From Escherichia coli (GTDB taxonomy: Bacteria > Pseudomonadota > Gammaproteobacteria > Enterobacterales > Enterobacteriaceae), in assembly GCF_003018235.1 (NCBI RefSeq), contig NZ_CP027437.1: a DNA stretch of 64,000 bases; one strand, written 5' to 3'. This document shows, piece by piece, positions 32,801 to 38,800 of this stretch (the first letter of the stretch is position 1; each line of letters opens with the position of its first letter). The position numbers were made by a program.

Positions 32801-35800
32801 CTGGACCGTGGTGAAGGTATTCCGTGGGAAGGTAACTACTCCTCCTGGCTGGAGCAGAAAGATCAACGTCTGGCGCAGGAAGCTTCACAAGAAGCTGCGC
32901 GTCGTAAGTCGATTGAGAAAGAGCTGGAGTGGGTACGTCAGGGGACTAAAGGCCGTCAGTCGAAAGGTAAAGCACGTCTGGCGCGTTTTGAAGAGCTGAA
33001 CAGCACCGAATATCAGAAACGTAACGAAACCAACGAACTGTTTATTCCACCGGGACCGCGTCTTGGCGATAAAGTGCTGGAAGTCAACAACCTGCGTAAA
33101 TCCTATGGCGATCGTCTGCTGATTGATGACCTGAGCTTCTCGATCCCGAAAGGAGCGATCGTCGGGATCATCGGTCCGAACGGTGCGGGTAAATCGACCC
33201 TGTTCCGTATGATCTCCGGTCAGGAACAGCCGGACAGCGGCACCATCACTTTAGGTGAAACGGTGAAACTGGCATCGGTTGATCAGTTCCGTGACTCAAT
33301 GGATAACAGCAAAACCGTTTGGGAAGAAGTTTCCGGCGGGCTGGATATCATGAAGATCGGCAACACCGAGATGCCAAGCCGTGCCTACGTTGGCCGCTTT
33401 AACTTTAAAGGGGTTGATCAGGGTAAACGCGTTGGTGAACTCTCCGGCGGTGAGCGCGGTCGTCTGCATCTGGCGAAGCTGCTGCAAGTTGGCGGCAACA
33501 TGCTGCTGCTCGACGAACCGACCAACGACCTGGATATCGAAACCCTGCGTGCGCTGGAAAACGCCCTGCTGGAGTTCCCGGGCTGCGCGATGGTTATCTC
33601 GCACGACCGTTGGTTCCTCGACCGTATCGCCACGCACATCCTGGACTACCAGGATGAAGGTAAAGTTGAGTTCTTCGAAGGTAACTTTACCGAGTACGAA
33701 GAGTACAAGAAACGCACGCTGGGCGCAGACGCGCTGGAGCCGAAGCGTATCAAGTACAAGCGTATTGCGAAGTAATGCGTAAAATACCGGATGCGACGCG
33801 CCAGCATCGCATCCGGTATTAGTTAAATGATTAGTCCCCGGAAAAGGCAGAATTTTCTTTAAGCGTATTAGCTCAGATGCGGACTGACATCTCAAATCAA
33901 GCGGGAACTCATGGTTCCCGCTTAACGTTTTATTCACCGCGCAAAATCTGGCGGAAATGGGAAACCAGCGGACGTTGGTTGGCTTTATGCCAGGCTGCCC
34001 ATAATTGCGTTGAATAATTCATCCACGGCAATTCACGTAATACCACCCCTTCCGGCGCATTATGACGCAGACTATGTTGAATTAAGGCCAGACCTAATCC
34101 CGCAGCGACCAAACCTAATGCCGTGAGGGGTTCACCCGCTTCCAGGCGAATATCAGGATTAAACCCGGCGTTAACACAGGCGGCGACAAAATGATCGCGA
34201 GAATGCGCATCGTCGTTATGAATCACCGCAATCCACTGCTCATCGCCAAGTTGTGACGCGACAAGGTTTTCCTCCTGCGCCAGAGGATGATTTTGCGGTA
34301 AGGCCAACAACATTCGATCATCCAGAACCTGAATATATTCCAGATCCTGCTCGCTGTCGGTGGGCGGCGTATCGACCAGAGAAAAATCGAGACTGCGCTG
34401 GCGCAGGCCTTCAATCTGGGTAGCCGGTGGTTGGCTGTAAAGTGCGATATGCACATTCGGACGCGATACACGTAACGTACGTAGCGCCGTAGAAAGCACA
34501 CCGGAATGCATGGCGTTTTCGATATAGCCAATACACAAGCCACCATCTTCCCCCCGTCCCAGGCGTTTGCCTAACGACTCCAGGCGGTTGGCGTGTGTCA
34601 GCAACGAACGTGTTTCGGCAAGGAATGTCTGTCCATCAGCGGTCAGGCGAATGCGCTGCTGATTACGCTCAAACAGCGTCAGCCCCAGCCGTTCTTCCAG
34701 TTGTGCAATCTGGCGGCTCAGCGGTGATTGCGAGATATGTAATCGCTCGGCTGCGCGTCCCACGTGCTCTTCTTCTGCGACCACCACGAAGTACTTCAGT
34801 TGGCGTAAATCAATCATGTTAGACCTAAAAGGACTTAAGTCAGACGAATTATGTCCTATCAAGTCACAACATCGCAAGGTATTGTGATCCACGTCACAGG
34901 GCGATAGCAAAAAACGCCCTAACCCAAACCGAATAATTGAGGACATCTTATGAGCATCAAAAATTTACTTCCCGGCAAAATTGGCTTAGGCGGCGCACCA
35001 CTCGGCAACATGTTCCGTGCCATTCCGGAAGAAGAGGCTCACGCCACCGTGAGCGAAGCCAGGAACCTAGGTGTGCGTTACTTTGATACCGCGCCGCTGT
35101 ACGGCTCTGGCCTTTCTGAAATCCGCATGGGTGAAGCGCTGTCTCAGTATCCACGCGATGAATACGTTCTGAGTAGCAAAGTCGGTCGCATCATGCTGGA
35201 CGAAATGGAAGATCCGGCAAAACGGGATTTCGGTGAAAAAGGTGGCCTGTTCGAACACGGCCTGAAAAACAAAATTCTGAATGACTACTCTGCTGACGCC
35301 ACGCTGCGCTCGATTGAAGACAGCCTGAAACGCCTGAAAACAGACCGTCTGGACATTGTCTGGATCCACGACCCGGCGCAGGACTTCTACGGTGACAGCT
35401 GGCTGGAGCAGTTCAACATTGCTCGTACCGGTGCGTTTCGTGCACTGACACGTTTGCGTGACGAAGGTGTGATTAAAGCCTGGGGACTAGGTGTGAACCG
35501 CGTCGAACCTTGCGAACTGACGCTGGCGCTGGACGAACCGAAGCCAGATGCTTTCCTGCTGGCGGGCGTTATTCCCTGCTGGATCACGAACGTGCGCTGC
35601 AACGCCTGATGCCAGAAGCACTGGAACAGAACGTAGATATCGTTGTGGGCGGTCCATACAGCTCTGGCGTACTGGCAGGCGGCGAGCACTTTGAATATCA
35701 GAAAGCCTCTGCGGCCATCCAGCAGAAAGTGGCGCAAATTAACGCCATTGCCACACGTTTCAATGTGAACGTTAAAGCAGCTGCGCTGCAGTTCGCGCTG

Positions 35801-38800
35801 GCAAACCCGGCCGTTGCAGCGGTTATTCCTGGCTCCAGCCGTCCTGGCCGTATGGCAGAAGATCTGGCTGCACTGAATGCGCCTGTTCCGGCTGAATTCT
35901 GGGCAGAAATGCGCCGTCAAAATCTGGTTGCGGAAAACGCTCCGCTGCCGACCCGTTAATCAACCTGGTGAGAAAACGATGAAACTGGATCTGACAGGTA
36001 AAGTCGCGGTGGTCAGCGGCTCAACCTCCGGCATTGGGCAGGGTATCGCCGCCGGACTGGCAAAAGCAGGCGCAACGGTGGTTGTCGTCGGCCGTAAACA
36101 GCGCGGCGTTGATGACGCCATGGCAGCGATTGCGACACAAACTCCCACGGCGTCACTGCGTGGCGTGGTGGCCGATCTCAGCACCGAAGACGGCGTGGCT
36201 GCGCTGATCGCTGCAGTCCCAACGGCTGATGTGCTGGTCAATAATCTGGGCATTTTCAACGATAAAGATTTCTTTAGCGTTCCGGATGATGAGTGGATGC
36301 ACTTCTATAACGTCAACGTCCTTTCCGGCGTTCGTCTGGCGCGTCACTATGCGCCAGGCATGACGGAACAGGGCTGGGGGCGGATTATCTTTGTCTCGTC
36401 CGAATCCGGCGTGGCAATCCCTGGCGACATGATCAACTACGGCGTCACCAAAGCCGCGAATCTGGCGGTCTCTCATGGTCTGGCGAAACGACTGGCGGGG
36501 ACCGGTGTGACCGTCAACGCCATTCTGCCAGGGCCAACCTTTACCGATGGCCTGAAAGAGATGCTGGCGGATGCCGCTGCACAATCGGGGCGCAGTGCGC
36601 GTGAACAGGCCGATGAGTTTGTTAAAACCTCGCGTCCGAGCTCCATCATCCAGCGTGCGGCGGATGTGGAAGAAGTGGCGAATCTGGCGGTTTATCTCGC
36701 GTCACCGCTTTCCTCGGCAACCACAGGGGCAGCCCTGCGCGTCGATGGCGGTGTCGTCGACACCCTGACTATGTAACCCTATAAATTAAGAGAAAATTAT
36801 CATGGCTAAAACAACTGTATCGATCGAAATTCCGGCTTCTGCCGACGCCGTATGGCAATTGATGGGCGGCTTTGATGCGCTGCCAGACTGGCTGCCGTTC
36901 ATCCCGAAAAGCGTGGTGACAGAAGGCGGTCGCGTTCGTTCGCTGACAACCTCTGACGGCGGCACTGTGGTTGAACGTCTGGAAGCGTTTGATAACCGTC
37001 AACGCAGTTATACCTATTCCATTATTCAGGCACCGTTCCCGGTGGTGGATTACCTCTCCACCATTACCGTTCATGAAACCGCCGACAGCCAGGTTTCCCG
37101 TGTGGAATGGTTCGGTGAATTCACCCCGGTGAATGTGACGAACGAAGAGGCCGAAGCGCTGTTTACCGGCATCTATCGGGATGGTCTCAAGGCGCTGAAG
37201 GACAACTTTGTTGCCTGATGCAATCGACAGGCGTCGGAACGTCCGGCGTCTGATTATTAACAAAATCAGAATAGTCTATTGTCATTTGTATCATTTATGT
37301 TATCAGGCAGCAGGCGTATTCTCTCCCCATCGCGTTAATAAACGCCAAACAATTAAGACACTCTGGAATATAAACATGAAAACGATCATCGCAATTTTTA
37401 CAGCTTCTCTTTTCTCTGTCGCGGCGTTTAACGCATCGGCGCAAAGCGTGACAGCAACCGGTACAACACTGGATTCTGCGGAAGCAGTTATTGCGCAGAA
37501 AGCGAAAGAGATGAACGCCTCTGAATATAAAATTACCGGCGCTCGCATGGGCAATACCGTCACCATGAGTGCCGAACTGTATAAATAATCGCGCGAGGGA
37601 CCCATTACGTAATTTGCTAAATATGCGCTGAATGCGTTGCCATTAATAAACCGTATTGTAATGCCACCGATGACGCGTTCCCGCGCGGGTGACGTTGCGA
37701 CTGACATAATGGCGGCCTATTACGCGCAGCGCGCCAGTGCTGGACTTATCATCTGCGAAGGTACGCAAATCAGCAGAAGCGCTGCGCATAATTTTCCATG
37801 GCACGCTGATTTACTCCGGTAAATACACCAAAGCGCGCGCCGAAGCGGACTGTCAGATTTGATTGTATTCTGGCTACGCAACTGATCGGTTGGAGTATGA
37901 AGTTGCTCACGAATAGCCTTAGCATCTGCAATTTCGTAGCGGGTCACCCGTGCAGGTTCTTTCTAATCTCAACAGCCTCTTCCAGAGAGGTTTTCAACTC
38001 ATCAAAAAAACTCATTTTATACCTCGCCTTTGAGCCGTTTCGTCACGGTTATCTCTGCTCGCCCATCATCTCCCGCACCAGCTCCACACAGCGCAGGAAA
38101 CGGCTGTCGTAATCGTCCTCTTCAACACGCACGAATTCGATATTGTTCTCTTCCAGCATCTCCACCAGCAAGTTCTGGAACTCTTTGCGATCCACCGAAC
38201 TACCGAGGCTGCGTAAACCATCCGCCACCCACGGGGTGTTGTTCTCCAGCAAGATAACCAGATCAAAACGGTATTCATCAATCAGCGCCTGCACGAACGG
38301 ATGCTCACGCCCTTCGTACTTTTTGCAGAACGCCTGGGTAGTGACAAAATCAGTGTCGATAAACGCCACTTTATTGGCGTATTTCACTGCAAAATCAATA
38401 TATTGCGCGTGTCCCAGCGCGATTTTATCGTAGTCAGAATACTGCAATGCGATCTCATCACCGCCGAGGTGTGAAAAGACATAATCGCGACCATATTCCC
38501 ACGCACTGGTGGTATTGAAGATATTGGCAAGTTTGTTTACCAGGGTTGATTTACCGCTCGACTCGCCGCCAAGGATCGCCACGGTACGCACAAAAAACGG
38601 CTTCACTTCAGTGGGGATATATTCCCAGTAGCGGAACGGGTTTTCGCGGATCTGCGCACCGCTGATACTCATAAAGGTGCGTTTCGGATCGACCAGCACC
38701 GTTTCGATCCCCAGATGTTCCATATACTGTGGCGCATCGGCTTCTTCCGAGGTGTAGATCAGGTCCGGCTGGATCCCCTTTTCAGCCATAAACTTTTTGA

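Follow-up and report, generated by a model that had tools for sequence, protein, structure and literature searches.

We analyzed the interval between ettA and nadR in a 64,000-nucleotide stretch of Escherichia coli DNA (NCBI RefSeq assembly GCF_003018235.1, contig NZ_CP027437.1), hereafter called the window. In this strain an accessory block of ~4.0 kb (33863-37900) separates ettA (32108-33775, plus strand) from nadR (38049-39281, minus strand). Genes were called from the open reading frame (ORF) list of the window together with the RefSeq annotation of two near-identical E. coli loci, and Pfam assignments were read from a public contig 100% identical to the window (L088, the Logan assembly of run SRR21461730). 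The block opens with an intact gene for a LysR-type regulator of 295 aa on the minus strand (33930-34817; annotation WP_000566334.1), just outside whose stop codon lies a terminator-like GC hairpin (33899-33923); the raw list extends this gene upstream, to an ORF of 338 aa. On the far side of a 132-bp divergent control region (34818-34949), the remaining genes all lie on the plus strand. The first encodes an aldo-keto reductase (AKR; 34950-35959) and is broken by a frameshift. It is followed by intact genes for a classical short-chain dehydrogenase/reductase (SDR) oxidoreductase of 265 aa (35979-36776), an SRPBCC (Polyketide_cyc2) protein of 138 aa (36802-37218), and a small secreted protein of 70 aa belonging to DUF1471, the YdgH/BhsA/McbA family (37376-37588), and then by the remnant of a NemA-like flavin reductase gene of the Old Yellow Enzyme (OYE) family. 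The initial annotation had described ~4 kb carrying LysR, AKR, SDR, SRPBCC, DUF1471, and OYE elements, and all six were recovered in place. The limits it gave the block, 33930-37822, hold for the six genes, but the full inserted DNA is wider, and on either side of it lies one half of nadS; these nadS remnants had been missed.

The gene nadS (NadS family, NCBIfam NF041265) is a small gene adjoining nadR. In strain IAI39 it is intact, encodes 94 aa, and lies directly between nadR and ettA. The ettA-proximal 119 bp of the IAI39 region, including the last ~14 nadS codons, aligned to window positions 33756-33862 (85%), and the nadR-proximal part (nadS codons 1-~42) aligned to 37901-38054. The intervening 116 bp of the IAI39 nadS middle are missing from the window, and 33863-37900 stands in their place. 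Both ends of nadS, on the minus strand, thus survive in the window: a 3' remnant to the left of the insertion (33831-33862, ~codons 81-94 with small deletions) and a 5' remnant to its right (37901-38016, ~codons 1-42), the latter frameshifted by a 10-nt deletion and annotated as "NadS family protein, frameshifted". Because both nadS ends flank the block and 116 bp have been lost between them, these alignments indicate that the block was inserted into nadS and is an acquisition rather than ancestral DNA lost from K-12.

The premise that ettA and nadR are neighbors in K-12 held. In MG1655 they are separated by a gap of 307 bp that has nothing annotated, contains none of the genes of the block, and is filled by palindromes of the repetitive extragenic palindrome (REP)/bacterial interspersed mosaic element (BIME) type. 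The MG1655 alignment to the window ends at 33800, inside a REP-like palindrome read from the sequence just 3' of the ettA stop codon (33788-33817), and restarts at 37912. The K-12 intergenic region begins with 38 nadS codons, a stump that is unannotated in the RefSeq record, and a nadS stump is likewise found in O157 Sakai, where it is annotated as a 55-aa ORF. Read from the two window remnants, from L086 5081-5365, and from the L003 intergenic region 4549-4855, at least four states of nadS were observed in E. coli: intact, split by the island, a 5' stump with REP/BIME sequences (K-12), and the 55-aa ORF (Sakai).

Distribution of the block was examined across 5,426 complete E. coli genomes. 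It was present in 482 (~9%), always as a single chromosomal copy, and its left junction was common to 474 of the 5,426; its absence from K-12 and its presence in these 482 bear out the accessory status proposed earlier. Carriers include O145:H28, O158:H23, O166:H15, porcine enterotoxigenic E. coli, and many clinical strains. An undisrupted nadS middle was present in 730 genomes, and the remaining genomes, of which K-12 and O157 Sakai were examined, had neither the block nor the nadS middle.

The cassette is not confined to nadS. It also adjoins yhiN/pitA in a genome labelled E. coli E69 (CP089930; locus L004, 7949-12756), with an intact 365-aa OYE, and lies between glyS and ghrB in Escherichia whittamii (locus L005, 7947-12111), with a different, in-frame OYE deletion. 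Similarity to the cassette copies at other sites starts at 33897-33899 of the window, just outside the LysR terminator hairpin. Since the cassette occupies differing sites in related genomes, it moves from site to site and across species, with transfer and recombination as the presumed routes. No integrase or insertion sequence (IS) gene was found among the genes identified in the block by ORF list, RefSeq annotation, and Pfam, and the two junction regions of the long-form locus showed no direct repeats spanning the junctions. With neither an integrase nor flanking repeats detected, and with nadS as the target and 116 bp lost from it, the block does not have the makeup of a classical genomic island or integrative element. 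In E69 the cassette is followed by a ProA-like anti-phage gene. The E. coli LysR-AKR junction also occurs, at 99-100% protein identity, on a 1,397-bp contig (L006) of a metagenome-assembled genome labelled "Collinsella sp."; this is most likely a mis-binned E. coli contig.

These data also bear on the converse history, in which the block is ancestral Escherichia DNA deleted by K-12 and most other strains and the whole locus, core genes included, is on its way out. That no more than a nadS stump is left in K-12 and O157 Sakai, with REP/BIME sequences at the K-12 site, and that the island edge has undergone successive deletions would fit such a history. The undisrupted nadS middle in the 730 genomes, IAI39 among them, together with split ends from which 116 bp are missing, is instead the signature of an insertion; the cassette is found at unrelated sites in other Escherichia genomes, and its core genes are under strong purifying selection (see below). 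We consider an ancestral island lost in K-12 very unlikely and rejected it in favor of insertion into nadS.

The OYE gene at the nadR-proximal edge has decayed extensively. It had been described as a stub of the first 55 residues; a stub it is, but the remnant is bipartite and carries further lesions. The 5' piece (37607-37774, plus strand) aligned with the intact 365/366-aa OYE genes of loci L004 and L008, relative to which its start codon has changed from ATG to ACG and its second codon from TTA to TAA, and 6 nt have been deleted. An internal deletion of 686 bp joins it to a 71-bp piece from the C-terminal third of the gene (37775-37845, plus strand; ~codons 287-310) that is 100% identical to L004 12519-12589. 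The ORF that remains (37637-37822) matches N-ethylmaleimide reductase positions 17-66 with its residues 3-49, and the window contains no full-length OYE/NemA barrel in an open frame (~365 aa), the 3' end being deleted. Intact OYE genes (365-366 aa) were found in E69 and in Yokenella, with a score of 396 bits to the model of the NemA subfamily. Megablast of the 5,426 complete E. coli genomes found neither an intact OYE nor the central deleted part in any of them.

A further deletion of 722 bp, with its junction at 37838-37845, took a GNAT gene together with the 3' end of OYE. In 20-21 genomes, including O158:H23, the island is longer and has more of the OYE 3' region as well as the AT-rich GNAT gene; the 722 bp are gone from the window and from most carriers. 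The edge of the E. coli island has been eroded stepwise, with the OYE lesions coming first and the 722-bp deletion afterwards. Because the OYE deletion of E. whittamii is different and in frame, OYE decayed at least twice.

The AKR gene carries a lesion of another kind. The initial annotation had proposed that it is split by a 1-nt frameshift, and comparison with relatives confirmed this: one G has been lost from a G run that reads GGGG in relatives and GGG at 35564-35566 in the window (plus strand). The resulting product has 206 native and 13 aberrant residues (219 aa; 34950-35609) and ends at a stop codon at 35607-35609. This stop overlaps an ATG (TGATG, 35607-35611) from which the final 116 codons are open in the correct frame, and gene callers report two adjacent PF00248 ORFs; the second (35609-35959, plus strand), which is called as a 116-aa PF00248 gene on L088, covers residues 222-336 of the intact enzyme, whose allele is WP_000023622.1. 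Residues 207-221 fall in no frame-correct ORF, and the complete (alpha/beta)8 barrel of ~336 aa is not encoded. Since these residues are missing, loss of function is likely, and AKR activity has probably been lost in this lineage. Downstream expression may be lowered too, as 370 nt of untranslated mRNA would precede the SDR gene.

A single-base loss in a G run, seen in none of the 482 complete-genome carriers, all of which have the extra G, is also what would be seen if a short homopolymer in an intact AKR gene had been misread or misassembled. The exact 219-aa product is, however, encoded on ~23-26 public contigs (of which 24 were read) from NCBI and Logan assemblies, the longest being a 5.01-Mb chromosome. 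Over 6,660 bp (31950-38609), the G3 run included, the window and the Logan assembly of SRR21461730 match at 100% identity. Moreover, of 59 coding sequences checked across the 64-kb window, none but AKR has an indel or internal stop, so errors are not abundant in this assembly. Because the truncated product recurs on these contigs and in an independently built, identical assembly, the concern about sequencing error can be largely set aside; we regard such an error as extremely improbable and rejected it as the leading reading. The frameshift is best read, from these comparisons, as a recent mutation private to this lineage. Two further explanations were rejected as well: genome-wide decay of the Shigella type, as the other 58 coding sequences compared across the window are intact, and a programmed AKR frameshift, as there is no slippery heptamer at CTGGCGGGCGTT and 482 of 482 relatives have a plain in-frame gene.

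The extent of decay was assessed by pairwise dN/dS (the ratio of non-synonymous to synonymous substitution rates) within E. coli and against Trabulsiella, Yokenella, Yersinia, Raoultella, and Serratia. For LysR, AKR, SDR, and SRPBCC the values were mostly 0-0.1, the highest being 0.175. Relative to the three E. coli carriers compared that have the block at the ettA-nadR site, LysR, SDR, and SRPBCC showed no non-synonymous differences, their proteins matching the common E. coli alleles exactly, and AKR, once its frame was repaired, showed 1-3 non-synonymous against 4-26 synonymous differences. The core is thus under purifying selection, and apart from one recent AKR lesion only the outer edge (OYE, GNAT, and nadS) has decayed. 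The earlier proposal that the island is under relaxed selection did not survive these results: dN/dS is mostly 0-0.1, the frameshift is private (0 of 482 carriers), and the order of the core is kept in ~70-77 of 80 species. One private frameshift and a dead gene at the edge do not amount to relaxed selection on the whole island. Within E. coli, synonymous divergence (dS) of AKR against loci L002 and L084 was 0.07-0.11, compared with 0-0.03 for the neighboring LysR, SDR, and SRPBCC genes; this several-fold higher value suggests a recombination mosaic inside the island.

Conservation of the cassette beyond E. coli was examined in a scan of one genome per species, which returned 571 stretches with AKR relatives; synteny was counted in the 80 best of these. 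A divergent LysR gene lies 100-220 bp upstream of AKR in 77 of the 80 loci, an SRPBCC gene is present downstream in 74, and an SDR gene lies between AKR and SRPBCC in 71. Independent clustering of all ORFs gave closely similar counts (LysR 76, SRPBCC 71, and SDR 69 of 80) and revealed no further universal neighbor among the 80 loci; beyond the four core genes there was only Pseudomonas-specific synteny. Holders of the core include Enterobacterales, Acinetobacter, many Pseudomonas, Oxalobacteraceae (Duganella and Massilia), and Streptomyces, the last without SDR. AKR identity is 73-78% from E. coli to Pseudomonas, Oxalobacteraceae, Streptomyces, and one Bacillus-group genome, and the regulator, 62-75% identical across the same distant genomes, is always divergent there. 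Among the 80 loci, it is only in Enterobacterales that the core is joined by DUF1471, a secreted protein of a stress family, and by OYE, a NemA-like alkene reductase. Nothing relevant to the cassette was found in the open literature searched. LysR|AKR-(SDR)-SRPBCC may be an uncharacterised pathway module that serves one specific, widespread small molecule, a suggestion to which we give somewhat less than even weight.

The encoded proteins were assigned to families and compared with their nearest relatives. The L088 regulator gene has both the HTH_1 domain and the substrate-binding domain (PF00126 and PF03466); among 54 NCBIfam LysR-family matches the best was AlsR-like at 223 bits, all of those shown being below their curated cut-offs. 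PF00248 is recognized on both AKR fragments, and the catalytic residues D46, Y51, K77, and H140 are present, all within the 206 native residues of the N-terminal fragment. The closest solved structures are plant L-galactose dehydrogenases (E 2e-29 to 1e-18), for which the best-scoring stretch of the top matches is mainly ~70 N-terminal residues. Automated source annotation names AKR relatives D-threo-aldose 1-dehydrogenase (EC 1.1.1.122), and the protein is only distantly related to DkgA, DkgB, and YdjG (<=71 bits).

The SDR protein (PF00106, PF13561) has the classical motifs GSTSGIG at 14, NNLG at 88, SSESG at 140, and YGVTK at 154. It matched PDB entries 8g9m at 460 bits and 3t4x at 239 bits, and the characterised structures nearest to it are those of NADPH-sorbose reductase and hydroxybutyrate dehydrogenase. 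The SRPBCC protein (PF10604) matched 3cnw ("XoxI") and 3f08 at E ~1e-51 over residues 1-136. All four entries come from structural genomics, 3cnw and 3f08 from the Bacillus cereus group, and given these strong matches the folds of SDR and SRPBCC are effectively known, but the depositors' molecule names give no function. The DUF1471 protein (PF07338) matched BhsA, RclB, and YhcN best and YbiJ as well, in each case below the equivalog cut-off, and its signal peptide was judged by eye from MKTIIAIFTASLFSVAAFNASA.

The divergent control region has two kinds of conserved sequence. One occupies its LysR-proximal half, conserved in 79 species, where the blocks AGACCT, GGACT-AAGT, and ATTATGTC (34821-34857) overlap a weak promoter-like match on the minus strand (34877-34848) that would be the lysR promoter. 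The blocks are a candidate LysR operator, at the place expected for LysR binding and autoregulation. The other element is a perfect CRP-consensus core, TGTGA-N6-TCACA, at 34883-34898 (TGTGATCCACGTCACA), which occurs nowhere else in the 64-kb window, where chance alone would give 0.10 matches. In ten enteric loci, from Escherichia, Trabulsiella, Yokenella, Yersinia, Raoultella, and Klebsiella, its arms are invariant and its spacer is variable; it is absent in the Serratia, Providencia, Acinetobacter, and Pseudomonas loci compared. As a candidate site, the CRP box points to control by carbon status.

From these features we infer how the cassette might be regulated and what class of substrate it might handle. 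The LysR protein would bind the conserved operator blocks in the 132-bp region, sense a small carbonyl-type ligand, and activate the operon, in Enterobacteriaceae jointly with cAMP-CRP at the perfect CRP box. The AKR and SDR enzymes would reduce aldehydes or ketones at the expense of NAD(P)H; where the enterobacterial cassette is intact, OYE would first saturate alpha,beta-unsaturated carbonyls, and the SRPBCC protein would bind or process a hydrophobic ligand. To this detoxification-type scheme, an inducible carbonyl reduction, we assign an even chance of being right. A more specific electrophile or quinone reading is plausible for the enterobacterial additions, judging by the NemA-like OYE and by the relationship of the DUF1471 protein to BhsA, RclB, and YhcN.

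The same enzymes could alternatively form a sugar or polyol oxidation fragment. AKR would then be an NAD(P)+-dependent aldose 1-dehydrogenase of the L-fucose/L-galactose/D-arabinose type, SDR would oxidise or reduce a downstream sugar acid, LysR would be induced by the sugar, and cAMP-CRP would switch the operon on without glucose. L-galactose dehydrogenases as the closest solved AKR structures, the D-threo-aldose 1-dehydrogenase names of AKR relatives, NADPH-sorbose reductase and hydroxybutyrate dehydrogenase as the nearest characterised SDR structures, and the perfect, conserved CRP box are all consistent with this proposal. Yet in none of the 80 species does a transporter, lactonase, dehydratase, or aldolase accompany the cassette; the top-scoring stretch of the best L-galactose dehydrogenase matches covers only ~70 N-terminal residues; the aldose dehydrogenase names are automated; the NemA-like OYE and DUF1471 additions of enterobacteria are stress-type proteins; and only the Enterobacteriaceae and Yersinia loci have the CRP box. 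Sugar oxidation is thus the less likely function, though with a real minority share of the probability.

Several points weigh against our overall reading of the block. No experiment or paper linking the cassette to any substrate was found in the open literature searched, and the L-galactose dehydrogenase relatives, the D-threo-aldose names, and the CRP box would fit sugar oxidation about as well. No convincing -10 element of an AKR promoter was found, and the position of the CRP box relative to the promoter could not be fixed. The TGATG stop/start overlap could in principle allow a two-piece AKR. Finally, the ~23-26 contigs with the truncated allele could include one strain sequenced repeatedly, and the lineage may be small.

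Carbonyl detoxification can be set beside two known E. coli systems. The nemRA-gloA and yqhC-yqhD-dkgA loci are electrophile/aldehyde detoxification units whose regulators are of the TetR type (NemR) and AraC type (YqhC). Like them, the cassette places a dedicated regulator next to NAD(P)H-dependent reductases, and the OYE (NemA) or AKR (DkgA) of those units has its counterpart in the NemA-like OYE and the AKR of the intact cassette form. Unlike them, it has a LysR-type regulator, an AKR distant from DkgA, and SRPBCC and DUF1471 partners, and its OYE is dead in all E. coli copies examined at the ettA-nadR site. By this analogy the cassette appears to resemble nemRA and yqhC-yqhD-dkgA in its working but is not a member of either. 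With the D-threo-aldose 1-dehydrogenase/L-galactose dehydrogenase group, the cassette AKR shares its closest structures, automated names, and a conserved catalytic tetrad; the similarity is partial, and sugar-pathway partners are absent nearby.

Other features were noted elsewhere in the window. Downstream of prfC, 55921-61852 is a prophage remnant with a dinI-like gene, cdtA/cdtB/cdtC, and a TipJ-family phage tail gene. The cdt genes encode a cytolethal distending toxin of type III/V and are 99.7-100% identical to those of O158:H23 strain CFIAFB20140388; the whole stretch was matched by only one complete E. coli genome. A second accessory block lies between nhaA and mokC (1428-5076). Its products are a 414-aa protein whose zinc-binding domain is of the IS1/IS1595 type, an OmpK-type outer membrane protein, and a sulfatase that shares only 95.4% identity with that of the genome otherwise closest. 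Between lplA and deoD, a small helix-turn-helix gene (43527-43790) is present in O158:H23 too. Relative to the O158:H23 reference, yjjV (50858-51637) and yjjW (49961-50824) are 93.5% and 96.2% identical, compared with ~98-100% for their neighbors, and probably mark a local recombination patch.

Overall, the block is probably a horizontally acquired chromosomal cassette that entered nadS, has no mobility genes of its own, is eroded at its edge, and has a conserved core and a recently truncated AKR gene. The first enzyme of the operon, AKR, is most likely dead in this lineage; the genes for the regulator, SDR, SRPBCC, and DUF1471 are intact. As a feature of E. coli genomes this is ordinary accessory-genome variation, made up of known protein families already annotated in hundreds of genomes. 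It is at the same time a clean example of a small cassette that was inserted into nadS and then eroded from one edge. The four-gene core is unusually conserved and syntenic across phyla, and no function for it appears in the open literature searched. The E. coli carriers, together with a natural AKR-null lineage in which the regulator, SDR, and SRPBCC genes are intact, would provide a convenient system in which to hunt for the substrate.

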